From contig JAZDKA010000041.1 of the NCBI GenBank assembly GCA_043803385.1, positions 19,799-83,798 on the forward strand: a DNA stretch of 64,000 bases. Direction: 5' to 3'. The notes under the pieces were generated by a model. It worked only from the letters and a program-made list of their open reading frames with translations. It had not been told where the DNA came from and did not search any database. Position numbers and translations under genes: made by a program. Shown here in pieces: positions 6,127-54,941 of this stretch. The DNA is from Patescibacteria group bacterium (GTDB lineage: Bacteria > Patescibacteriota > Minisyncoccia > Moranbacterales > JAKLHP01). Within the stretch, counting starts at the first letter, position 1. Each line of letters opens with the position of its first letter.

Positions 6127-7209
6127 ATGTTTAAAAAATTTGAAAATTTTTCTAAAATGATAGGAGGATTATTCGGTAAAGTTTCCCAGGATATCGGAAT
6201 CGATCTTGGAACAGCCAACACTTTGGTATACGTTAAAGGAAAAGGGATTATGATCAATGAACCTTCTGTTGTAGCCGTTAACAAAAAAACCGGACAAATT
6301 TTAGCTATCGGGAAAGATGCCAAAAGAATGGTTGGAAAAACCCCGAGTCATATTGTGGCAACCAGGCCATTAGTTGACGGGGTAGTGAGCGACTTTGAAA
6401 TTACTGAACAAATGCTCCGCCATTTTATTAATAAAGTCGGAAAGCAATCCTTTTCTCTTATTCCTCGCCCAAGAGTGCTCATTGGAATTCCTTCAGGAAT
6501 AACAGAAGTCGAAAAGAAAGCAGTTGTTGATGCCGCAACCAATGCGGGAGCAAGAGAAGCTTTTCTTATTGATGAACCGATGGCGGCGGCAATTGGAGCG
6601 CGCCTTCCAGTAACGGAAGCAGCGGGGAATATGGTGGTAGATATCGGCGGAGGAACTTCAGAAATCGCGGTAATATCTCTGGGCGGAGTGGTAGTTTCAA
6701 GAAGTTTGCGTGTAGCCGGAGATGAAATGAATGAAGATATCGTGAGATATTGCCGGGACGAATTCAATCTGCTGATTGGAGAGAAAACAGCTGAGGATGT
6801 AAAAATAGCCATCGGAAGCGCTTATCCGATGAAAGAAAGCATGACTCTTCCTGTTCGAGGAAGAGATCTTATCAGCGGGCTTCCAAAAGAAGTTATCGCC
6901 AATGACGAGCAAATCAGGCAGGCATTATCAAGGTCAATCAGGATCATTGTTAATAATATCAAATCGGTAGTAGAAGATACTCCGCCGGAACTTTTGGCCG
7001 ATGTGATGCAAAGGGGGATAATATTGGCCGGGGGTGGAAGTTTGATCCGCGGAATGGATAAATTAGTTGCCAACCAAACTGAGATGCCGGTTAGAATGAT
7101 GGAAGATCCTTTGACAGCCGTAGTTCGCGGAACTGGAATAGTGCTTGAAGATCTTGAAAATCTTAAGGACGTCTTGGTTGAAAGCGAATACGGAAAATCC
7201 CTTATTTAA
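6127..7209 (+). CDS. mreB: Rod shape-determining protein MreB
   Basis: Has GIDLGTANT, EPSVVA and DIGGGTSE actin-fold motifs. Length 360 aa. Confidence 0.9.
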   Translation: MFKKFENFSKMIGGLFGKVSQDIGIDLGTANTLVYVKGKGIMINEPSVVAVNKKTGQILAIGKDAKRMVGKTPSHIVATRPLVDGVVSDFEITEQMLRHFINKVGKQSFSLIPRPRVLIGIPSGITEVEKKAVVDAATNAGAREAFLIDEPMAAAIGARLPVTEAAGNMVVDIGGGTSEIAVISLGGVVVSRSLRVAGDEMNEDIVRYCRDEFNLLIGEKTAEDVKIAIGSAYPMKESMTLPVRGRDLISGLPKEVIANDEQIRQALSRSIRIIVNNIKSVVEDTPPELLADVMQRGIILAGGGSLIRGMDKLVANQTEMPVRMMEDPLTAVVRGTGIVLEDLENLKDVLVESEYGKSLI

Positions 7210-18816: not shown

Positions 18817-20265
18817 ATGGAAAAAGTACGCGTCAGATTTGCGCCGTCGCCGACAGGGGAGCTTCATATTGGAGGGTTGAAAACAGCTCTTACTGATTTT
18901 TTGCTGGCCAAGAAAAATAACGGAACTTTTATTTTGCGCATTGAAGACACTGACAGGAAAAGATATGTCGAAGGCGCGGCAGAAAGAATAATAAAATCCT
19001 TAGAGTGGGCGGGAATCACAATCGACGAGGGTCCCTATATTCAATCAGAAAGGCTGGATATTTATAAAAAATATGTCGATCAGCTTATGGCGAAAGGAGA
19101 AGCTTATCTTTGTTTTTGCACGCCAGAGAGGCTAGAGGAAATGAGGAATCGGCAAATGGCTGAAAAAAAAGCGCCAATGTACGACCGATGCTGCCTTAAT
19201 CTTTCCAAAGAAGAAGCAGAAGAAAAAATTAAAAATGGAATTCCATATGCCGTGAGATTAAAAATTCCCGAAGGGAAAACTGAATTCGAGGATTTAGTTT
19301 TCGGGAAAATAACAGTTGAAAATTATGTTTTGGACGACCAGGTGATACTCAAATCTGACGGATTTCCCACTTATCATCTAGCGGTCGTGGTAGATGACGC
19401 GCTGATGGAAATAACGCATGTAGTCAGGGGCGCTGAATGGCTTCCCAGCACGCCAAAACATATTTTATTGTATAAAGCACTTGGATGGGATGACAAAATT
19501 CCGAAATTCTGCCATATGCCAAATATTCTCAATAAAAATCACAAGAAACTTTCCAAGCGGGAAGGGGATGTGAGCGTAGAAGATTTTAGGAAGCAAGGAT
19601 ATTCTCCGGAAGCGATTATTAATTTCATCGCGCTTCTAGGATGGAATCCAAAGACAGAACAAGAAATTTTTACCAAGGAAGAACTCATTGAGCAATTCGA
19701 TATTTCCAAAATGAACAAAGCCGGAGGAGTTTTCGATATGGATCGGCTCAATTGGATCAGCGCCCAGCATATCAAAAAAATGAGCGATAAGGAACTATAC
19801 AAAAAAACCATTGAATTTTTGAAAGAAAAAGAATTTTTCGAAAATGCGAAACCGGAAAGAAAAACGGAAGAATACGTAAAAAAAGTTTTATCCGTTGAAA
19901 AAGAGAGGCTTAGCAAATTTACCGAAGTAGGGGAGAGCAATTGGTTCTTTTTCAAAGATGATTTTGAAATCAAGAAAGATGATTTGAGATGGAAAAAAAT
20001 GTCCGATGAAGAACTTAAAAATTCCCTTGAAGCTTCCCTGTCGGTATTAAATGGAATAGGGGAGAGTGGATGGAAAAAAGAAAATATTGAAAAAGAATTA
20101 CTTGAAGCGGCGAGGGACAAAAGAGGGGATTTACTTTTCCCGCTCCGTTGGGTTTTGACCGGACAAAAATTTTCCCCGACACCATTTGAAGTAGCCTGGG
20201 TCTTAGGGAAGGAAGAGAGCGTAAGGAGAATAAATAATGCCCTAAAATTATTTAATGAAGAATAA
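18817..20265 (+). CDS. gltX: Glutamyl-tRNA synthetase
   Basis: HIGH-type motif PTGELHIGG and the KLSKR (KMSKS) motif. Length 482 aa. Confidence 0.9.
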   Translation: MEKVRVRFAPSPTGELHIGGLKTALTDFLLAKKNNGTFILRIEDTDRKRYVEGAAERIIKSLEWAGITIDEGPYIQSERLDIYKKYVDQLMAKGEAYLCFCTPERLEEMRNRQMAEKKAPMYDRCCLNLSKEEAEEKIKNGIPYAVRLKIPEGKTEFEDLVFGKITVENYVLDDQVILKSDGFPTYHLAVVVDDALMEITHVVRGAEWLPSTPKHILLYKALGWDDKIPKFCHMPNILNKNHKKLSKREGDVSVEDFRKQGYSPEAIINFIALLGWNPKTEQEIFTKEELIEQFDISKMNKAGGVFDMDRLNWISAQHIKKMSDKELYKKTIEFLKEKEFFENAKPERKTEEYVKKVLSVEKERLSKFTEVGESNWFFFKDDFEIKKDDLRWKKMSDEELKNSLEASLSVLNGIGESGWKKENIEKELLEAARDKRGDLLFPLRWVLTGQKFSPTPFEVAWVLGKEESVRRINNALKLFNEE

Positions 20266-43665: not shown

Positions 43666-44664
43666 TTAACCGATGATCTGAACTTCCGCATCATGACCGC
43701 CTGCCAGATGTGAGAAAAGTGCCTGTTGCTGACGGGAATGCAGGTCTGCCTTGCCCTCATATTCACCCATGAGGAACTTCATGGCAGTGGTTCTGCAATC
43801 GTTGTACGCCTTTGTGAAATTGTCCGTATGCTTCCGTTCTATTTCCGACGGAAACGGAACTTCGGCAATACCTTCACTGGGCACATAGGTTGTGATGTAA
43901 TATCCGTCTATAATGCGTGGCCGTACAATTGCTGTGCGACCATTGTAGCTTACCCTTACCGTAAGCGGTTTGAGTCTTTTTACTTCCTCTGCCGTTTTTG
44001 ACGGCAGCGTATTCACGGTATAAATTGTTTCGGCATGATTCTGAGCGATTTGTTCGCCCAGTCCGGTAATCGCGGTCTGGATTTCTCCCAAATTACGATT
44101 AGTCGCTTGCTGTCGTCTTTCCCCGTCCTGCCTGCGTCTTTCGTCCTGGCGCCGGTTATAAAGAATATATGCGCCGAGACCAAGGAAGCCGAAGATCAAA
44201 ATTGCTGCCATTATCCGGAAGTTTTTGACAATCATGTCGGATACGTTTCCGAGTCTTTCGTAGAGCCAATCAATGTTGCTCGCATTGACTCTATTGGCTT
44301 CCGTATTTTTGATAACAGCGTCTGCGAGCTTATCCACTGATTTCATCGCAGACTTGTGTACCTCCAGGGCAGCTGCATTCGCTCCTTCGACGGCAACTTT
44401 TATTTTTTTGTCGAGAGCATTAAACGCTCCCTCAACCTTGCCGTCCTTGCTTCCGAGGAGTTTCTTCTCGAGACCGTAGACGCTCCCGACTTTCTTCTGG
44501 ACCGCTTTCGCAATCCCCTCCTCGGTAATCTGAGCCGGCTGAGCCGACTGTCCGGCAACGGACGTGTTGCTGTCAACCTGCGGTACTTTAATTTCCGCTT
44601 GTGCCGTGAAAGACACAAGCACCAATGTCAAGATGGCCATAATGGCCAGAATTTTTGTTCTCAT
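43666..44664 (-). CDS. Hypothetical secreted/membrane protein, foreign-looking (GC ~50%, strong SD)
   Basis: Signal peptide, a central TM segment, and an RRQDERRRQDGERRQ stretch. Preceded by AAGGAGGCATCG-ATG. Confidence 0.55.
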   Translation of the reverse strand: MRTKILAIMAILTLVLVSFTAQAEIKVPQVDSNTSVAGQSAQPAQITEEGIAKAVQKKVGSVYGLEKKLLGSKDGKVEGAFNALDKKIKVAVEGANAAALEVHKSAMKSVDKLADAVIKNTEANRVNASNIDWLYERLGNVSDMIVKNFRIMAAILIFGFLGLGAYILYNRRQDERRRQDGERRQQATNRNLGEIQTAITGLGEQIAQNHAETIYTVNTLPSKTAEEVKRLKPLTVRVSYNGRTAIVRPRIIDGYYITTYVPSEGIAEVPFPSEIERKHTDNFTKAYNDCRTTAMKFLMGEYEGKADLHSRQQQALFSHLAGGHDAEVQIIG

Positions 44665-44674
44665 CGATGCCTCC

Positions 44675-46087
44675 TTATCGTTTGAGTTCTTCGTATTTAT
44701 CAGGAATAGAATCTAGCTTCTTCTCCTGCCCGTGCCTTATCGCTATCTCTTTCCCTTTGAGTTCGAGAATGGCCAAAGCCCAGTTGTAGCGGACCTTGTA
44801 AATGACATTCTGCGCCCCACTCAGGGTTGAGGTTTTGATGTGCTTCTTGGTTTTGGGGTCTTTCTTTGACTCATGGCCATTATTGAAATCCCGTTCGGCA
44901 ATCTCATACTGTTTGATTGCTTTTTCAAGAAGCTCCTTGTTGGTTCTGCCAGTGCAGAAATACCAATCAAGGTAAGCATCTCCGTATTCCTTCCGGAGCC
45001 GTTCGTTGTTATAGGAAGGTGTATCGCAGAATAGCGTACCTTCCTCCATTTCCTTGATCTTTTCGATATAAATTGATGGATTGCAGACTGGCTTCGGTGG
45101 CTCGACTTTCGGTGGCGGACATGGTTCCGGCTTTTTTTCCACAATCACTACTTTAGTTTTTGGTGGAGGAGGCGGACTGCAAATATCCACACCGTTTGGC
45201 GGCGTAGTCGGTCCATCATTAAGAGCTAGAACCATCCAGTCATATGCCGTATCGACATATGCTTCGGTCGTTCCGATTAATCCGCCGAGTGACATAGCTA
45301 CTGCCGTGTCGTCCGGCGAACCAAACAGTTTTGCTCCGGCTGCTCCAGATCCAATTGAGAACCCGGAATTTTTCGGGTCTCTGCGCATCCTGTAGAATGC
45401 AAAGACCCGGCTGGTATTGGTCGTCGCCTTAGCTTCCGCCAAGCAACGTCCCAATGCCGCTCCTTTCGGCCACCCATAGTAACCCTCGCATTCGAACTCA
45501 CCTAAGAGTTGGTCACTCGGATAAATCATAGATGAATCCCAATTCAGGATCACCACAGGTTTGTTATCCGAGTTTCCATTGAATGGCACATGAATAACTT
45601 TTTTCACTTCACCTGAAAAGAGCTTGTGAAAAAATCCGCCTTTCCGGTCCGAGAACGAACCGGAACTTCCTGTGTTGCTAAGTCGCTCTTTGGTATAAAT
45701 CCGATAGAGCGGCTGGCATAAGAAAGGTTTCCAACCGTCAACAGTCGGAAAGAGTGGAGCTCCGACGAAACTTCCTACGGGACCAGGTAACGCAGTGATA
45801 TGTTCCCGCTTATCTTCACTGACATATGTGTTAGTCAGCGAATTATCTGCGGAAGAATTTCCGCTGGTGGCATTTGCGTTGCCACCCTTTCCACCAATAC
45901 CAATAGCAGTCTGTTTCTGCTGTTGGTCTTGATTTTGCTTTTGATTCTGATCCTGCGTGGCGTTTCCGCCGGTTGATGTCGCAGTATTCGAGTTTGAATT
46001 ATCAACATTCGTGCTGACGTCTGCCAACACTGGTCCTGTAAAAATCAGGACCGCCAATGCCATAAATACTACAAAAACTGTCTTCAT
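44675..46087 (-). CDS. Hypothetical secreted protein, foreign-looking. Its N-terminal module matches that of the LPXTG protein at 47450-47995.
   Basis: Signal peptide. ADVSTNVDNSNSNTATSTGGNATQ matches ADVNVSVKNTNKNTATATGGTATQ. A proline-rich PPPPKTKVV...PEPCPPPKVEPPKP segment. Preceded by GGAGGTGCAAT-ATG. Confidence 0.55.
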   Translation of the reverse strand: MKTVFVVFMALAVLIFTGPVLADVSTNVDNSNSNTATSTGGNATQDQNQKQNQDQQQKQTAIGIGGKGGNANATSGNSSADNSLTNTYVSEDKREHITALPGPVGSFVGAPLFPTVDGWKPFLCQPLYRIYTKERLSNTGSSGSFSDRKGGFFHKLFSGEVKKVIHVPFNGNSDNKPVVILNWDSSMIYPSDQLLGEFECEGYYGWPKGAALGRCLAEAKATTNTSRVFAFYRMRRDPKNSGFSIGSGAAGAKLFGSPDDTAVAMSLGGLIGTTEAYVDTAYDWMVLALNDGPTTPPNGVDICSPPPPPKTKVVIVEKKPEPCPPPKVEPPKPVCNPSIYIEKIKEMEEGTLFCDTPSYNNERLRKEYGDAYLDWYFCTGRTNKELLEKAIKQYEIAERDFNNGHESKKDPKTKKHIKTSTLSGAQNVIYKVRYNWALAILELKGKEIAIRHGQEKKLDSIPDKYEELKR

Positions 46088-46578: not shown

Positions 46579-47433
46579 TTATTTCACCATTTCTGCTTTG
46601 ACGACAATCCTCCGAAGAGCTGTTCCTAGCGGCCAGCAAGTGGATAATGTTAGCGTCGGTTCGGATGTTTCGGCAAATATTCTTTCATCATCCGGAGCAT
46701 CAATATATTTTCCGGAAACTTTGTACTGGTAAATGACAACTGCTCCATTGTATTGGATAGTTTTTACGGAAATCAGATCTCCGGCTTCAAGATTATTCAA
46801 ATCTTTGAAGATATAATTATAATCTCCCTTCACCCAAACGTAATTGCTTGAATGTCCGGAAATTACCATATTTCCATTCTGTCCGGGCGAAGCAGTTTTT
46901 GGATAATGGGCAATCCCGCTTTTCAAATCTTCCAGCATATTTTTTTCATCTTCGCTCACTGACCAAATCATTGGAGCATTCACCGATATTTTTTCTATAG
47001 ACAGTTCCACTTTCATTTTTCTGTCTCCCGGAAAACTTGGGTCGTAGCCGTTAGCTATTTCATTCTTGTCAGAATATCCGTCTCCGTCCGTGTCGGCTTT
47101 TCGCGGATCAGTCCCGTGGACATATTCCAAAAAATTAGGAAGCCCGTCTCCATCCGGATCGCCGTCATATTTTTCGCTTCCTGCGCCCAAATTATGCTGT
47201 TCCGCCCATCCGTCATAATCCAGGGAAGCAATAGAACTCGAACCCATTCTTTTTTTGAGTTCCTGGTTGCTATTGTCGCTGGAAACGTTTAAAGAAGCGG
47301 GTAATTTTTGGTTGCTCGGTTTGATGTCCAAATTGGACAGATAAAAAAGAATAAAAAATATGGCCAATAAAAAACAGCTGAAAAGAATAGAATTAATCCA
47401 ACTGCCTCTTATTTTTCGCCAAAAATTGTTCAT
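46579..47433 (-). CDS. Sortase family transpeptidase with thrombospondin-type-3-like Ca-binding repeats
   Basis: Has the TLSTCWP catalytic motif (TLxTC) and DPDGDGLPN / DTDGDGYSD repeats. N-terminal TM segment. Confidence 0.75.
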   Translation of the reverse strand: MNNFWRKIRGSWINSILFSCFLLAIFFILFYLSNLDIKPSNQKLPASLNVSSDNSNQELKKRMGSSSIASLDYDGWAEQHNLGAGSEKYDGDPDGDGLPNFLEYVHGTDPRKADTDGDGYSDKNEIANGYDPSFPGDRKMKVELSIEKISVNAPMIWSVSEDEKNMLEDLKSGIAHYPKTASPGQNGNMVISGHSSNYVWVKGDYNYIFKDLNNLEAGDLISVKTIQYNGAVVIYQYKVSGKYIDAPDDERIFAETSEPTLTLSTCWPLGTALRRIVVKAEMVK

Positions 47434-47449
47434 GATTTTAATTCAAAAA

Positions 47450-47995
47450 CTATTTTGCGTATCTTTTGTAAGTTTTTACAGAACCTGCAGCTACTAATCC
47501 TGAAGCGGCTAAAATTCCAAGCAGTCCCGGAATTCCTGCTCCCGTAGCTGGCAATACTTTCTTGGTTATATAAACTTTTTTTCCGTCTTTATTATGAGTG
47601 TAATAAACCTTCTTTCCGTTTTTGTATTCGTAATGATCATTATTATGATCCTTATTTCCGTTATCTTTATCAACGTCTACCTCCACCTTTGTTTTTGAAG
47701 TTTGGCTAACAGAAGCGCTACCGCCAGTAGTTGACCGCGACTGGCTTTGAGATTGCGACTGTGATTGCGATTGTGATGATTGCGCAAGCTGTGAAGACGA
47801 AGATTGTTTCTGGCCTTGAGATTGCGACTGTGATTGTGATTGCGTTGCAGTTCCTCCTGTCGCAGTTGCCGTGTTTTTGTTAGTATTTTTCACGCTAACG
47901 TTTACGTCAGCGAATGCCAAATTTACAGCCAAAAAACACAAGGCTACGGCTGAAATAGCAAGCATTGACGCATAGATTATTCCCCTTTTTGCCAT
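47450..47995 (-). CDS. LPXTG-motif cell-surface protein (sortase substrate) with Ser-Gln repeats
   Basis: Signal peptide, (SQ)n low complexity, and a C-terminal LPATGAG + hydrophobic stretch + KTYKRYAK sorting signal. Confidence 0.65.
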   Translation of the reverse strand: MAKRGIIYASMLAISAVALCFLAVNLAFADVNVSVKNTNKNTATATGGTATQSQSQSQSQGQKQSSSSQLAQSSQSQSQSQSQSQSRSTTGGSASVSQTSKTKVEVDVDKDNGNKDHNNDHYEYKNGKKVYYTHNKDGKKVYITKKVLPATGAGIPGLLGILAASGLVAAGSVKTYKRYAK

Positions 47996-48122
47996 ATTGA
48001 TTAAGTATATTAATAATTATTACCCGATAAGGGATTTTGTAGGCTAACAGATATCCGGTTTTTTGTCAAGTAAAAATGCCGACAGTTAGCCGGCAAGTAT
48101 AAATCTTTTTAAATATGATTTT

Positions 48123-49298
48123 TTATAACTGCACTTTCACTTTCATCTCTTGCCCGTCTCTAATTACGGTAAGTTCAATGGAATCCCCCTTTTTATATTG
48201 GCTCAAAAGATTAGATAATGGATTATCGAGATTAACTTCCTTATCGCCCACTGAAATTATAATGTCGTTTATTTTTAGCCCTGCTTTTTCCGCCGGAGAT
48301 CCGGAAAGTATAGCCAGTCCTTGCTTTCCAGATGAGGAATAAATTAGCGCGCCCTTATCGCGATTCAAATTATTAGCAATCGCATAAGCTTTGCTTATGG
48401 GCAAATAATAAATTCCAAGATACGGCCTTTTGCTGAATTCATTTCCAGTTGCCAAATTCATTGAGTTCTTGACTATATTGGAAGGAATTTCGAAAAATTT
48501 TTCTTGGTTATCGGTAGTGAGCGATCCGATAATTCCAACTAGCTCGCCGTTATAATTAATAATTGGTCCGCCTAAGTAATCTTTTTTGTCCAAAAAATCC
48601 GTTTCAAAAACTCCTTCCATTTTTTCCGAAGAAGAAAGAGTTTTTCCGGAAATATTGAAAGTTTTGTCGATATTACTCAAAAGTCCCGAAGAATATCTGT
48701 TTTGATAATCCTCAAATGAATTTCCGATAGCGATAAGTTTTTTTCCCGGATAGAAATCATCTGAATTTGAAAACGGGATAGGAGAAAAGTTTCCCGCCTC
48801 GATTTTTAAAAATGCAAGATTGGTAAATTCATCTATTCCGACCAATTTCGCTTCATGCGAAGAACCGTTGAAGGGCAAAATTTGGTATCTGGCATCGCTT
48901 TCGGTTATAGCGGTTCGATATGTTGCAATAAGCCCGTCTGAAGTTATGATCACTCCAGTCCCATTTCTGATTCCTCCTAGCGGATTTAAAGCAGTTTTAT
49001 CTTTGTCTGAAATTGAAATTATGTTTACTACGGAAGCTCCGGCCTGTGAGGCAATCTTATTCACTGAATCTTCTTCTTTGATGGTTACTTGCTCGGTTTT
49101 GCTTATGATGGTCGTGTTTTCGATAGCTTTTTTAAATAATTTTAATTTTGATAATGTCGGAGAACTGCTGGCTTTTGGCAAAATATACGCATTGAAAACG
49201 ACGGATCCGAATCCACCGACTATGAACATAAACAATGCTAACAATAATATCCTGGTAAACTTCCTCATCTTATTTTTTATTATACCGCCAATTGCCAC
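48123..49298 (-). CDS. HtrA/DegP-like trypsin-fold + PDZ protein with all three catalytic residues substituted (pseudo-protease)
   Basis: Alignment to the neighbouring htrA shows His->Thr (LIATYRTAI vs LVATNKHVV), Asp->Asn (NLAFLKIE vs DIAIIKVE) and Ser->Leu (DYLGGP vs GNSGGP). The PDZ region is retained. Confidence 0.7.
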   Translation of the reverse strand: MAIGGIIKNKMRKFTRILLLALFMFIVGGFGSVVFNAYILPKASSSPTLSKLKLFKKAIENTTIISKTEQVTIKEEDSVNKIASQAGASVVNIISISDKDKTALNPLGGIRNGTGVIITSDGLIATYRTAITESDARYQILPFNGSSHEAKLVGIDEFTNLAFLKIEAGNFSPIPFSNSDDFYPGKKLIAIGNSFEDYQNRYSSGLLSNIDKTFNISGKTLSSSEKMEGVFETDFLDKKDYLGGPIINYNGELVGIIGSLTTDNQEKFFEIPSNIVKNSMNLATGNEFSKRPYLGIYYLPISKAYAIANNLNRDKGALIYSSSGKQGLAILSGSPAEKAGLKINDIIISVGDKEVNLDNPLSNLLSQYKKGDSIELTVIRDGQEMKVKVQL

Positions 49299-50017
49299 CT
49301 TGAGCTGGTTAATATCAGCCCGATTATTATGCTGAATACGATTAAATTTACAATTATCCTTTTTTTGGAAAGCTTTCTTGAAAAGTAGCTGTTAGCCATA
49401 TCCCAAAACACATAATAGAAAATAAGGGCTATTACTCCGGTTGTCAAGTATCCGAACGGCCAGAAATTTATTACCCATGAAAGTTCCGCCATAGCCATGG
49501 AGAGTATCAAACTATAATTCAGGATTTTCTTTTTGTCTTTGGAAATAACGCTGAAATAATGATAGCTTAAAATAAAAGTAATAGCCAGAAAAGCAAACAT
49601 CAGTATAGTTAGCGGAATGGAAAAATTTATGTAAATTCCGTAAAATCCGGCATAGAAAAAGAAAGCCGATGCCATTATCGCTCCCGCGTAAACTCCGGCA
49701 GCTGTCTGATCTTTGGAATAATTTTTGAGCCGATATATTCCAAGAAGAATAAAATAGAATACAGTAGAAGAAAAAATAATAAATATCTGTTTTTCTAATG
49801 GAAAGTCTATAAGATAAAATAGAACTATCGATGACAGGGAAAATAGCATCGGAATAACGGAAAAAGAATATTTTTCCCCCAGCCTTTTTCCCGCAAAGAA
49901 TGAAAAAAACAAAAAAAATGCCGCCAAAAACCAAACGAGATTTTCATTGAGATAAATAAGTTCAAAAGCAGATAAAAACAATACGGAATAAAATAGAGAT
50001 TTAAGGTGAAAAAACAT
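49280..50017 (-). CDS. Hypothetical polytopic membrane protein
   Basis: A 245-aa protein with ~7 predicted TM helices. Confidence 0.45.
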   Translation of the reverse strand: MFFHLKSLFYSVLFLSAFELIYLNENLVWFLAAFFLFFSFFAGKRLGEKYSFSVIPMLFSLSSIVLFYLIDFPLEKQIFIIFSSTVFYFILLGIYRLKNYSKDQTAAGVYAGAIMASAFFFYAGFYGIYINFSIPLTILMFAFLAITFILSYHYFSVISKDKKKILNYSLILSMAMAELSWVINFWPFGYLTTGVIALIFYYVFWDMANSYFSRKLSKKRIIVNLIVFSIIIGLILTSSRWQLAV

Positions 50018-50137
50018 ATACCGGAAATTACTAATTTCTAATTATTCTAATTTCTAATCAAATCCCAATTACTAAATTTTCTAATTTAAAAAATTAGAAA
50101 TTAGGTTAATTAGGTCAATTAGAAATTTTATTTTATT

Positions 50138-51364
50138 TTATTTTATTTCCTCCAACGTGGCTTTTACGTCATTCGTACTTCCTTTATGCCAGACTTTTAA
50201 CGTTATTGTGTCTCCGACATTGTAATTAGCAATAAGATCGCTAAGCTGGTTGCTGTCATTTACTTTGGTTCCATTTACTTCCAGTATTATATCATTTTCA
50301 ACTATTCCGGCTTTGTCAGCTGGAGAATTGGGCATTACTGCCAGATCTGTCGGCTTTGATCCCCTCAAGACAAGTGCGCCGTAGCCAAAAGGAAGATTAT
50401 TGTCGGACTGAATCTGCTTGTCTATAATAACGCTTCTTACTCCCAGATAAGGAGTTGATATTTTTCCCGTAGCATTCACTTGGTCCACTATTTTTTTTAT
50501 CTGGTTGGAAGGAATCGCGAATCCTATATTTTGAGCGCCTTGAGCTATGGCTACGTTTATGCCTATAACATTACCGCTGATGTCCAAAAGCGGACCGCCT
50601 GAATTTCCGGGATTTATGGCGGCATCCGTCTGAATTATATTGGAAAGCTGCTCGGTTTGTCCAAGGCCTGATCCGGCAGTCAGATTCCGGCTTAGGCCGG
50701 AGATAATGCCCTTGCTCACTGTATTATAAAACTCTCCTAAAGAATTTCCAATGGCGATAACAGTTTGTCCCACTTTCAAATTGTTCGAATCCCCAAAACT
50801 CAAAGTGGGAAAATTATTTCCTTCGACTTTGATTATTGCGATATCCTTAACTGGATCTCTGGCTAGAACTTTGGCTGGATATTCTTTTCCGTCATTTGCT
50901 ATAACGGTGTAATCAGCGTTTGCGTCGCTTACCACATGCTTATTGGTTGCTACTAATCCATTTTGATTTACCAGAAATCCTGATCCGGCGCCCACTGTTT
51001 GCTTCTCGGTGCCGCTACTTTGATTTTCTTCGAGGTCATTGAAAAACCCGAAAGGATCTTGGAAAAAGCTCCTGTATTTTGGCACATCCTTTGAAATAAC
51101 GATGCTAACAACTGCCGGAGTAGATTTGTTTACTGTTTCTATCACAGTCGATTCTTCCTCGGTGATATTTTGATTTACTGCTTGATTCGATTGGTCCGTT
51201 TTCTTTCCTATGGAAATTTTTCCACCCATAAATCCAAATACTGCTCCAAAAAAAGATGAAAGCAGGATCGAAAGTATGATTGCTGTTGTGAATATTGATT
51301 TTGAAGCACTCTTGACGCTATCTTGTTTTGGAATTTCTTGTTCTCGATTAGTTATATTTTCCAT
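50138..51364 (-). CDS. htrA: Serine protease HtrA/DegP (active triad) with PDZ domain
   Basis: Has TNKHVV (His), DIAIIKV (Asp) and GNSGGPLLD (Ser), plus a C-terminal PDZ domain. ATG start chosen at MENITNREQ; the ORF track used an upstream TTG. Confidence 0.85.
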   Translation of the reverse strand: MENITNREQEIPKQDSVKSASKSIFTTAIILSILLSSFFGAVFGFMGGKISIGKKTDQSNQAVNQNITEEESTVIETVNKSTPAVVSIVISKDVPKYRSFFQDPFGFFNDLEENQSSGTEKQTVGAGSGFLVNQNGLVATNKHVVSDANADYTVIANDGKEYPAKVLARDPVKDIAIIKVEGNNFPTLSFGDSNNLKVGQTVIAIGNSLGEFYNTVSKGIISGLSRNLTAGSGLGQTEQLSNIIQTDAAINPGNSGGPLLDISGNVIGINVAIAQGAQNIGFAIPSNQIKKIVDQVNATGKISTPYLGVRSVIIDKQIQSDNNLPFGYGALVLRGSKPTDLAVMPNSPADKAGIVENDIILEVNGTKVNDSNQLSDLIANYNVGDTITLKVWHKGSTNDVKATLEEIK

Positions 51365-51574
51365 ATTGGGAATAGATTTTAATTTTGGTTTTATATTTAA
51401 GACTTGCGCATTTGCCTCTGTCAAAGCCGTAGCTCCGGCGCGATGACGGACAATTTTGTAATCGCGCCTCCGAAAACGGCTTGTCATAGTCAAATACGCA
51501 AGCTTCGCTTTTTTTATCAAATTATTGCTTAAATGTCCGCATTAGTCTGCGTTAAGTCCGCGTAGGTCGGCGGA

Positions 51575-51757
51575 CTATTCTTCCATTGAAACAGCACTTA
51601 CTGGACAGCTGTTAATAACTTCTTCGCAGTTGCATTCCCCGCATTCGTCTGCGATCACTTTTGATTTCCCATTTTCAACTTTAAAAACATCGGGGCATGT
51701 TGACTCGCATGTTCCGCATCCAATGCAAGTATCCTCATCTACTTTTGGTTTTGGCAT
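51575..51757 (-). CDS. 4Fe-4S ferredoxin
   Basis: CIGCGTCESTCP and CGECNCEEVINSCP cysteine motifs. Length 60 aa. Confidence 0.8.
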   Translation of the reverse strand: MPKPKVDEDTCIGCGTCESTCPDVFKVENGKSKVIADECGECNCEEVINSCPVSAVSMEE

Positions 51758-51765
51758 AAAAAATT

Positions 51766-52810
51766 TTAAAATAATACTGATGCATCTCCCTGGGAGTTGT
51801 TTATTATTTCCTTTTCGAAATTTTTCATTGGTTCATCTTTGAAATCAACGGTTTCTTCTTCTTTGTTCCAGGAATAATCTTTGGAAAATACCATGATTTT
51901 CATTTTTTTCATTTCTTCGTAAAGAAATTCTCCGAAAGTTTTTTTGGGCAGAAAAATCTGCCTTATTCTTATAAGTTCGGAATCATTTTCTGTTTTTTTG
52001 TCTTCCACTTCAATAATATGGAATCCAAGGGAGCTTTCAATAATGTCGCTTATTTTCCCCTTGTCTGAAGCAAAGACTGCCTTCGATACTTCTTCAATGA
52101 GCTGGTCTTTTTTGAACCACCCAAGCTCTCCCCCATCTTGGGCAGTTGATCCTTTTGAATATTCCATGGCGACATCGGCAAAAACTTTCTTCTTATTGAG
52201 TTCGGCTTTTGCTTTTTCTATTTGTTCTTTTCCTTTCTTGACCGAACTATCTCTGGATGCAAATATTTTTTCAAGCTCCTGGCGGTATAGATCCGGTTTC
52301 ACGACTTTTTCCTTAAAATCATCAATTGACCAGCCGTATAGTTTTTCCAGGTTATTATTCAAATTATCTCCCGTTCCGTATTCTTCCATTTTTCTGCTTA
52401 AATTTTGGCTGACCATCGCATCCGTTATCTTCATACCTTCTTTTCGGGCTAAAATTTCAATCGCTTTGTCTTCGATCATTCTTTCGAGTACTTCTTTCTC
52501 TTTCATCTTCAGCCTTTTTTTTCCATTTTCAGTGGAAAAATCCACCCGCAAATCAACTTTCGAAAAATCCTGGTTTTCATAAAATTTCTTCACTGATTCA
52601 AGATTGTTATTGAGATTTTTAAATGTGATAAAATTATAATTATTCAAAACCGCAACCGGATATGGGATTATTTTTTCCATTTTTTTAACAGCCTTATAAT
52701 CTTTTCCAAATCCGTAAATAAGAATGCCAAAAACAACGATAATAGCTACAGCTACTATCAAACTAGAGTAAACAATAGTTGATATTTTTACTTCATTATC
52801 TTTTGCCATA
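51766..52810 (-). CDS. PpiC-type (parvulin) peptidyl-prolyl cis-trans isomerase, SurA/PrsA-like
   Basis: Start taken at MAKDNEV. N-terminal TM segment. The parvulin domain carries GGELGWFKKDQL...GFHIIEV. Confidence 0.75.
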
Positions 52811-52952
52811 ATTGTCTTTGAGCGTAGCGAGAAGCTACAATTATGAGCATCCCGCATCAATTTTTTAACTGATATTTATATTTATCCAGGTAAGCCGTAG
52901 GCGATTCCGTGGATAAAACTAGCTTTTGTTTTAAATTTTATTCGAAATTGAT
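52811..52952 (-). repeat. Family B MITE-like element copy B5
   Basis: gagcatcccgcatcaattt ... aggcgattccgtggataaaa ... gaaattgattgcggga. The TIRs show co-varying substitutions. Confidence 0.75.
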
Positions 52953-53885: not shown

Positions 53886-54248
53886 CTATAAAATTTTTTC
53901 GATTGTTTCATCAAGGAAATGATCCCAATCCGGCGCATGTCCGTTTGATTTTGCAGATTGCAAAACCTCAATCGATTTGTCTTTTTCAAGCCTCGTGGCT
54001 TTATCCATTGCGAACTCATCGTTAGTTCTGAATGGAATCTGCCAGATCGTAAAATCTTCTTTCATCCAGTACTCGCCAGCTACTCTCCCATATCTGCCAG
54101 TATACTGGTAAAGAGAAACGAATTTCTCTTTAGTGTGATACGTAGTTGTTCTTTTTGACCAGACATAATCTTTAGGTTGTCCACCTTCGATTATGCCTCC
54201 TTCAAAAATTGTAGACCTACTCCAAGGCATTTCTTTAAAAAATTTCAT
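53886..54248 (-). CDS. Hypothetical protein, foreign-looking (strong SD), cassette-like
   Basis: A 120-aa ORF preceded by AAAGGAGGATGT-ATG and followed by the family F element. Confidence 0.5.
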   Translation of the reverse strand: MKFFKEMPWSRSTIFEGGIIEGGQPKDYVWSKRTTTYHTKEKFVSLYQYTGRYGRVAGEYWMKEDFTIWQIPFRTNDEFAMDKATRLEKDKSIEVLQSAKSNGHAPDWDHFLDETIEKIL

Positions 54249-54398: not shown

Positions 54399-54941
54399 CT
54401 ACTCCTCATGGATAAATTTCAGTAGCTTAATAACTGCTGGAATATCCTTGGGATGCTTGCGCAGGTTGTCTTCAACTCTCCTGCGGGCCTTCGCCAGTTC
54501 TTCTTCTGTCGGAAGAGCCTTGGCAAGTTCCCAATCTCTGACCAGCTCTAACTCAGCTTCTTCAAGTTTTTTCAGAAGCTCATTCCGAAGAGCCATGACA
54601 ACCTCCTTGGCCGTTGCTGGCCTAGAAAAAGAGTCTTTTTCTATTTCGCAATCCGAATCGCACTCCTCAGTATGCTCATGAGGCATCAACCAGCATACTT
54701 CAATGTCAAACCAACCCCCCGTGTGCTTATTTTTTCCCTCAAAGTAATAGCTCTGTATACTTACCCTGAGGATCTCCCCTTCTCTTAGGGGGAAATGATC
54801 AACTTTCATAAGGCTTTCATGGGTGAGTCCTAGAGATGCCAGTCTCTGGGCAAACTCATTTCTTGCTTCAACTTGACCCGCAAGCGAAGCGTCAAGAAGC
54901 GCCTTAATTTCCGCTAAATCTTTTTCTAATAAATCTTTCAT
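54399..54941 (-). CDS. Hypothetical protein, foreign-looking (strong SD, GC ~48%), cassette-like
   Basis: A 180-aa ORF preceded by AAAGGAGAAAAG-ATG. Acidic Cys/His patch HEHTEECDSDCE. Confidence 0.5.
   Translation of the reverse strand: MKDLLEKDLAEIKALLDASLAGQVEARNEFAQRLASLGLTHESLMKVDHFPLREGEILRVSIQSYYFEGKNKHTGGWFDIEVCWLMPHEHTEECDSDCEIEKDSFSRPATAKEVVMALRNELLKKLEEAELELVRDWELAKALPTEEELAKARRRVEDNLRKHPKDIPAVIKLLKFIHEE

Follow-up and report, generated by a model that had tools for sequence, protein, structure and literature searches.

The 64,000-nucleotide stretch analysed here (hereafter the window; positions 19,799 to 83,798 of contig JAZDKA010000041.1 of a Patescibacteria group bacterium) encodes an HtrA-type protein that has lost all three residues of the catalytic triad and belongs to an old family maintained by selection. 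Its gene, the open reading frame (ORF) at 48123..49298 on the minus strand, specifies 391 residues from a GTG at 49298, with an N-in membrane anchor, a trypsin-like domain without the triad and one PDZ domain; we call the product the pseudo-HtrA. The tightest conserved link of this protein is not to the active HtrA encoded nearby but to a membrane protein of the DUF5656 family (PF18900), whose gene (49280..50017, minus strand) lies directly upstream. Dead protease paralogues are familiar in general, and those with an HtrA fold have so far been studied in a few special systems, namely magnetosomes and plant organelles. What is new is a large clade of dead HtrAs in Patescibacteria with an obligate DUF5656 partner; a literature search on inactive HtrA proteins in Patescibacteria returned nothing relevant, and one on DUF5656 found no paper.

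Loss of the catalytic triad

In a BLASTP comparison, the pseudo-HtrA is 32% identical over 279 residues (E = 8e-48) to the product of the neighbouring ORF 50138-51520(-). Read from the ATG at 51364 (50138..51364, minus strand), that product is an active-type HtrA with His143, Asp174 and Ser255, Trypsin_2 and PDZ domains and an N-terminal transmembrane (TM) anchor. The alignment pairs ATYRTAI with ATNKHVV, FTNLAFLK with VKDIAIIK, and KDYLGGP with PGNSGGP, placing Thr129 (codon 48912..48914), Asn160 (48819..48821) and Leu242 (48573..48575, all on the minus strand) at the positions of the catalytic His, Asp and Ser, respectively; the GGP of loop L1 that follows Leu242 is kept. When a profile of 33 family members was aligned to solved DegP-like chains, the same three columns fell opposite the catalytic His, Asp and Ser (or the position of a Ser-to-Ala mutant). 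The three substitutions proposed in the first-pass annotation are thus borne out, and we confirm that ORF 48123-49298(-) encodes an HtrA-type protein with neither the nucleophile, the general base nor the Asp.

We searched for an alternative triad by profile alignment to solved structures and by family-wide conservation, and found no conserved His, Ser or Cys candidate. The pseudo-HtrA contains a single, non-conserved His (H148) and no Cys, which leaves no alternative triad. No His is invariant in the family alignment and no Cys occurs in the family. The former triad columns are hypervariable across the clade (T/S/N/D/G/K/E; N/D/G/E/R; L/I/V/A/S) with the flanking fold residues fixed, and in the deep set of dead sequences conservation is limited to Gly and Asp residues of the fold and to residues of the PDZ domain, with no new catalytic-looking site. 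The Gly-Gly-Pro of L1, in the region of the oxyanion hole, and the overall architecture of the cleft are what a non-canonical hydrolase using other catalytic residues has in its favour; set against the variability of the triad columns and the missing His and Cys, such an enzyme is very improbable and effectively excluded.

Fold and domain architecture

The first-pass annotation also held that the trypsin fold and the PDZ domain are otherwise retained, and both are. Pfam Trypsin_2 matches the dead copy over the full model (E = 2.9e-15), followed by PDZ_2 (E = 2.8e-13) and PDZ_6 (E = 1.4e-7); the active neighbour matches Trypsin_2 at E = 9.7e-37, together with a PDZ domain. Profile searches of the PDB reach DegP, DegQ and HtrA1 with E values down to 3.6e-36, and Foldseek searches with the AlphaFold2 (AF2) model of the pseudo-HtrA return DegP, DegQ and HtrA2 (E of about 1e-19 to 1e-20), as well as DegS. 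Of the features that define HtrA/DegP proteases (MEROPS S1C), the pseudo-HtrA therefore has the trypsin-like two-barrel domain and at least one C-terminal PDZ domain, and lacks the His-Asp-Ser triad. It scores below the cut-offs of the named NCBIfam HtrA, DegP, DegQ and DegS models (best, NF047968, 149.6 bits versus 470), and so does the active neighbour (300.5 versus 416.2 bits).

The predicted N-terminal TM anchor (49179..49253, minus strand; about residues 16-40, within an AF2 helix spanning residues 3-45) follows a basic MRKFTR sequence. Directly after the TM helix stands Pro41, which is 94% conserved and found in the dead clade only, then a segment, ENVTIINKTEQVTxxEDD, that is conserved and dead-specific at the level of Moranbacteria, and next the protease domain. 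Set against the orthologues of the active paralogue, the conserved N-terminal segment specific to the dead clade reads ENVTIINKTEQVT. The catalytically dead Trypsin_2 domain (48531..48962, minus strand; residues 113-256 by Pfam, profile alignment and Foldseek) is missing the LA-like loop insertion that those orthologues carry before the first barrel. A conserved segment in the LD region, GKTxSSSEKLEG, is one residue longer than in the orthologues and corresponds to an insertion of about eight residues relative to a solved DegP-like chain, and the L1 loop of the dead family is YxGGP.

The PDZ domain (48126..48431, minus strand; about residues 290-391) has an intact YLGI carboxylate-binding loop, and its groove residues (G295, Y298, G316, A317, S334, A336, G340, D345 and R380) are as conserved as in active HtrAs. 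The AF2 model has a mean pLDDT of 71.5 and is low at residues 56-77 and 197-236, which coincide exactly with the two dead-specific conserved segments. These stretches may become ordered only within a complex.

An old family under purifying selection

All of the 120 closest database homologues (55-77% identity, from metagenome-assembled genomes of Patescibacteria and Moranbacteria) lack the His, and 119 of them lack the Ser. A profile search over 1.84 billion representatives of 50%-identity clusters extended this picture: non-catalytic residues occupy the triad columns in 49 of the 50 best cluster representatives, the exception being P0151. In a set of 141 near-full-length sequences, made up of 139 of the top 150 profile hits and the two window proteins, 65 are dead. 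The database names attached to homologues are 'S1C family serine protease' or 'serine protease Do', labels that mislead metabolic and proteostasis inference in genomes of the candidate phyla radiation (CPR).

The first reading had taken the ORF to be intact, and had raised frameshift or absence in close relatives as the sign of recent decay. In fact, an unbroken reading frame is present in at least 68 species-level genomes and across hundreds of clusters from metagenomes. Between close pairs with unsaturated synonymous divergence (dS 0.3-1.2; Nei-Gojobori), the ratio of non-synonymous to synonymous substitution rates (dN/dS) takes values of 0.04-0.09 in the dead gene, compared with 0.07-0.17 in its active paralogue. 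Rates were compared across the 36 genomes in which all four genes occur. The dead protein has a mean pairwise identity of 0.52, against 0.56 in the active HtrA, 0.44 in DUF5656 and 0.42 in PrsA; it diverges about 14% faster than its active paralogue, and its evolution is slower than that of PrsA or DUF5656. Recent inactivation and drift to loss would account for the missing triad and for nothing else; the dN/dS values and rate comparisons rule out recent pseudogenisation, an explanation that we regard as effectively excluded and give next to no probability. The pseudo-HtrA clade is an old, selected family. A whole deep CPR clade of HtrA homologues is dead and locked to a membrane protein family that is uncharacterised, and selection acts on it as strongly as on the active enzyme.

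In an unrooted neighbour-joining tree the sequences with an intact His-Asp-Ser (HDS) triad group together, flanked by a few with partial loss, and midpoint rooting yields no single all-dead clade; the triad may have been lost once or several times. Sequence divergence suggests that the clade reaches beyond Moranbacteria and Paceibacteria.

A conserved gene pair with DUF5656

We scanned one genome per GTDB species and obtained 68 loci, all of Moranbacteria or Patescibacteria type, 63 of which had enough upstream sequence for the neighbouring gene to be read. In 61 of these 63, the next gene upstream, on the same strand, encodes DUF5656. The exceptions are L042, with a gap of about 660 nt, and L060, in which aspS takes that place. 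Many of the GTDB representative records that carry the locus at 45-71% identity are titled 'uncultured Bdellovibrionales bacterium' (L005, L008, L011, L012, L016-L018 and others); the locus is typical of Patescibacteria and Moranbacteria, and these titles look taxonomically mislabelled.

The pairing also holds in distant members of the family. Among seven divergent members looked up individually, six (P0150, P0181, P0228, P0140, P0127 and P0198) have a DUF5656 or DUF5656-like gene of 247-263 codons immediately upstream, often with clpB and once with secY before it; the seventh, P0164, lies on a 1.6-kb contig that carries no neighbouring gene and is uninformative. If a DUF5656-linked HtrA lineage is defined by an HtrA-like gene immediately downstream of DUF5656 on the same strand, the window locus belongs to it. 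So does P0151 (L079), the best-scoring homologue with an intact His-Asp-Ser. P0198 (L077; Glu-Asp-Ser) combines a partial loss with a confirmed upstream DUF5656, and in P0235 (L080; His-Asp-Thr), another partial loss, only a 49-residue fragment without a Pfam call is visible upstream. When metagenomes were scanned with P0151 as the seed, the 80 sequences retrieved were generic active HtrAs, and DUF5656 was upstream of none of them. Since the triad-intact P0151 is also DUF5656-linked, the partnership appears to be older than the loss of catalysis, as judged from this single HDS example and the partial-loss cases. Intact HDS, partial loss (EDS, HDT) and full loss form a natural series for the repurposing of a protease scaffold.

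Two further features of the loci with a partly or fully kept triad may be recorded. A DUF5679 gene (49-52 residues) stands ahead of DUF5656 in both (L077, 271-429; L079, 1894-2043), and in both a Wzz/GNVR-like gene follows the HtrA gene.

The wider neighbourhood is also recurrent. The common order is divIC-prsA-(fdx)-active htrA, an interval of about 2.7 kb that holds clpB where gene calls exist, and then DUF5656-dead htrA. The clpB gene (about 870 codons) immediately precedes DUF5656 in many lineages, some of them very divergent (L001, L074, L075, L078, the P0140 contig and many of L009-L069), and no ORF of that size occurs in the whole 64-kb window. In a metagenome locus retrieved with an active-HtrA query (L086), the distance from the active htrA to the start of a downstream DUF5656 fragment (6792-7166) is about 2.6 kb, which fits an htrA-clpB-DUF5656 arrangement in yet another lineage.

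Could the pseudo-HtrA instead act mainly on the active HtrA two genes upstream, either through mixed oligomers or by activating or restraining it allosterically, in the manner of MamO and MamE, with DUF5656 as a membrane platform only? The first-pass annotation had suggested something close to this, a regulator working across the intervening membrane protein, and had described the two paralogues as tandem. They are indeed neighbouring genes, 840 nt apart in the window, but not strictly tandem, as the DUF5656 gene lies between them, and the same order recurs in L003, L005-L007 and others. Selection in favour of paired active and inactive HtrAs also has a precedent (PMC4794232). Of the 50 loci for which 6.5 kb or more of upstream sequence is available, however, only 30 have an active-type HtrA within the 8-kb flank; the other 20 are without a nearby one, and clpB often lies between the two. 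Comparative genomics hence points elsewhere: with DUF5656 near-invariant (61 of 63) and the active HtrA present in 30 of 50 loci and often separated by clpB, a regulatory role towards the active enzyme is disfavoured.

Correlations between distance matrices, which are built on non-independent pairs and thus are weak evidence, speak to both possibilities. After removal of the PrsA and third-protein signal, r is 0.51 between the dead protein and DUF5656, 0.46 between the dead and active HtrAs, and -0.07 between the active HtrA and DUF5656. These values fit a functional tie of DUF5656 to the dead protein instead of to the active HtrA. The second of them can be read in favour of a MamO/MamE-type interaction, although shared fold constraints alone can give correlated rates in paralogues. 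With the linkage to DUF5656 being far tighter, we consider that type of interaction unlikely as the main role.

The DUF5656 partner

The 245-residue window protein encoded at 49280-50017 passes the gathering score of PF18900 (34.4 versus 23.3 bits), and all 120 homologues listed for it carry the same annotation. Nine TM helices are predicted with an N-in/C-out topology, and the structural model (pLDDT 90.6) has nine helices. The distribution of Lys and Arg places the WPFGY loop and the C terminus outside, so that the conserved loop NFWPFGYLTTG and a C-terminal tail of fixed length are predicted to face the same extracytoplasmic side as the pseudo-HtrA. A second conserved loop, YRLxxYxKDQTARG, is predicted to be cytoplasmic. 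Structure comparison found for DUF5656 neither a fold relative of known function nor a relative with a solved structure.

In the Moranbacteria-level clade, the tail ends four residues past an invariant Trp in 119 of 119 sequences, and the terminal residue is Val or Ile in 113 of the 119. HtrA PDZ domains characteristically bind hydrophobic C termini. Because the tail matches such a ligand, a contact between it and the PDZ domain of the pseudo-HtrA is an attractive hypothesis.

Proposed function

Taken together, we propose that the pseudo-HtrA works with DUF5656 in envelope protein quality control, as a membrane-tethered partner that has lost catalysis but has a competent PDZ domain; this reading is probable but far from certain. 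The N-terminal helix would tether the protein, with its retained trypsin-like fold and a PDZ domain able to bind peptides, to the outer face of the cytoplasmic membrane. Its gene would be co-transcribed, and probably translationally coupled, with that of DUF5656, and the two products would form a complex. Within it, the dead HtrA would bind peptides or unfolded proteins without cleaving them, as a holdase, adaptor or scaffold; the chaperone or substrate trap suggested on first reading of the sequence is plausible in these terms. The complex would act alongside PrsA, the active HtrA, ClpB and the Sec and sortase machinery, and the pseudo-HtrA may pass clients to the active HtrA or modulate it. 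The assignment to envelope proteostasis follows from the recurrent neighbours, which are prsA, active htrA, clpB, secY/secDF, and a sortase with an LPATG substrate. On this reading, the gene pair would provide a first functional context for DUF5656.

Several points weigh against the proposal. One genome (L060) has the dead gene without an adjacent DUF5656, and the non-independence of the distance correlations has been noted above. Loss of the triad, purifying selection, conservation of the gene pair and the predicted topology are shown; the physical complex, the binding of clients through the PDZ domain and the part played in proteostasis are inferred. The AF2 model of the pseudo-HtrA is mediocre and poor at the two segments that are highly conserved. 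In deeper lineages the last residue of the DUF5656 tail is Y, S, G or I, so that the contact between PDZ domain and tail is not universal, and co-variation of the tail class with residues of the PDZ helix follows clades, is therefore not independent and was not used as evidence. Finally, the pathway assignment is drawn from gene neighbourhood, since no functionally characterised protein shares the fold of DUF5656.

An alternative that shares the membrane tether and the DUF5656 partner is that of a non-proteolytic sensor of envelope stress, in which the PDZ domain would sense the exposed C termini of misfolded secreted proteins, as in DegS, and signal conformationally to DUF5656, with a tie to the heat-shock protein ClpB. 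The DegS-like architecture (N-terminal anchor, protease domain and single PDZ), the recurrence of the order clpB-DUF5656-dead htrA in distant lineages and the conserved cytoplasmic loop of DUF5656 would all suit such a role. DUF5656 has no recognisable signalling or DNA-binding domain, however, the conserved neighbourhood contains no sigma or anti-sigma gene, and ClpB is absent from the window, which together make a sensor rather improbable.

Returning to the quality-control partner, a more specific version can be put forward as speculation that we would not expect to hold in full: an undescribed DUF5656/dead-HtrA membrane complex, widespread in Patescibacteria, in which the PDZ domain clamps the Trp-x-x-x-Val/Ile tail of DUF5656 and the hollowed protease domain serves as a catalysis-free chamber for clients near Sec, PrsA and sortase. 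If true, a protease would here have given rise to a holdase, in organisms that are without most periplasmic chaperones.

Comparison with known HtrA pseudoproteases

Pseudoproteases with an HtrA fold are established in magnetotactic bacteria, in the form of MamO and inactive copies of MamE, a system in which triad loss after duplication has occurred repeatedly (PMC4794232). Like the pseudo-HtrA, MamO and the inactive MamE2 have an HtrA/trypsin-2 fold with a degenerate triad, are under selection and are encoded near an active HtrA paralogue (PMC4794232). MamO is nevertheless a different protein: it has about 650 residues, a transporter-like domain at its C terminus and a di-His metal site on its surface, and it is encoded in a magnetosome island. 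The pseudo-HtrA, of 381-391 residues, has a PDZ domain, a single His that is not conserved, and DUF5656 as its partner; it is found in Patescibacteria in a neighbourhood of envelope and housekeeping genes. Of the MamO-type features, only the degenerate triad beside an active HtrA is present; the di-His motif, membership of the MamO family and the magnetosome island are not. MamO identity was excluded by a score of 44 bits against the NCBIfam MamO model NF040961 (cut-off 800), the missing di-His motif and the different architecture.

In plants and algae, Deg proteins with inactive protease domains include AtDeg16 and, in its second domain, AtDeg7, and the dead domain of DEG7 mediates trimerisation (PMC3473262, PMC3194040). 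The likeness lies in a degenerate HtrA domain kept for protein-protein interaction or oligomerisation instead of catalysis. In contrast to the pseudo-HtrA, the DEG7 dead domain is fused to an active one, the setting is eukaryotic and organellar, and no DUF5656-like partner has been described.

With DegS and the anchored HtrAs of Gram-positive bacteria (S1C), the pseudo-HtrA shares the N-terminal anchor, one trypsin-like and one PDZ domain, the extracytoplasmic location and the genomic association with PrsA, Sec and sortase, but unlike them it has no catalytic triad. Cleavage of an anti-sigma factor upon PDZ activation, as in a DegS-like stress sensor, does not apply to a protein with no catalytic residues and no linked sigma or anti-sigma gene.

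Locus layout and neighbouring genes

Between 48.1 and 52.9 kb, the genes on the minus strand are transcribed in the order PrsA/SurA-like peptidyl-prolyl isomerase (51766-52860), small 4Fe-4S ferredoxin (51575-51757), active HtrA, DUF5656 and pseudo-HtrA. The isomerase and the ferredoxin (51575..52860) are conserved upstream neighbours and members of the recurrent divIC-prsA-fdx-htrA-(clpB)-DUF5656-pseudoHtrA arrangement.

The DUF5656 stop codon (49280-49282) is 11 nt ahead of an ATG at 49268, or overlaps the pseudo-HtrA gene by 19 nt if the start is the GTG at 49298. Because most homologues have 381-389 residues, the true start is probably the ATG (MRKFTR..., 381 residues). A terminator-like GC hairpin with a T-run (48077..48095, minus strand), located 28 nt past the stop codon of the pseudo-HtrA gene and identified by consensus match only, is likely to mark the end of the transcription unit. 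Similarly, a promoter-like site, TTGGGA-16-AATAAT (50041..50068, minus strand; consensus match only), lies in the 120-nt AT-rich spacer 5' of DUF5656 and could be a separate start for the DUF5656/pseudo-HtrA bicistron. This very AT-rich spacer between active htrA and DUF5656 (50018-50137) also contains repeated and inverted copies of AATTTCTAATT/TTAGAAATTAG, which could represent a regulatory operator or a weak terminator; it is here that clpB is inserted in many relatives. The start of the active HtrA is uncertain: its ORF extends a further 52 codons upstream to a TTG at 51520, overlapping nothing, and reading from the ATG at 51364 gives the usual short cytoplasmic N terminus followed by a TM segment.

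Further upstream, two ORFs without a Pfam match, 53886-54248(-) (120 residues) and 54399-54941(-) (180 residues), stand between divIC and lepA and break the adjacency of these genes present in L003. Directly downstream of the region with the pseudo-HtrA and an LPATG protein, there is a gene (46579-47433, minus strand) for a sortase that combines a TM segment at the N terminus with a calcium-binding repeat of the bacterial TSP3 type; many related loci also have a sortase 1-3 kb downstream of their dead HtrA. The proteins encoded at 44675-46087(-) and 47450-47995(-), considered together with 43666-44664(-), are secreted or anchored; the two have an N-terminal motif in common, ADV..V.N.N.NTAT.TGG.ATQ, which comes after the signal peptide and leads into a low-complexity stretch rich in Q/N/S. 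The one of 470 residues has a poly-Pro stretch, no Pfam hit and a local GC content of 0.48, against about 0.37; the one of 181 residues carries an LPATG sortase signal at its C-terminal end, together with a TM segment and a basic tail. These proteins may be sortase substrates or pilin-like surface proteins.

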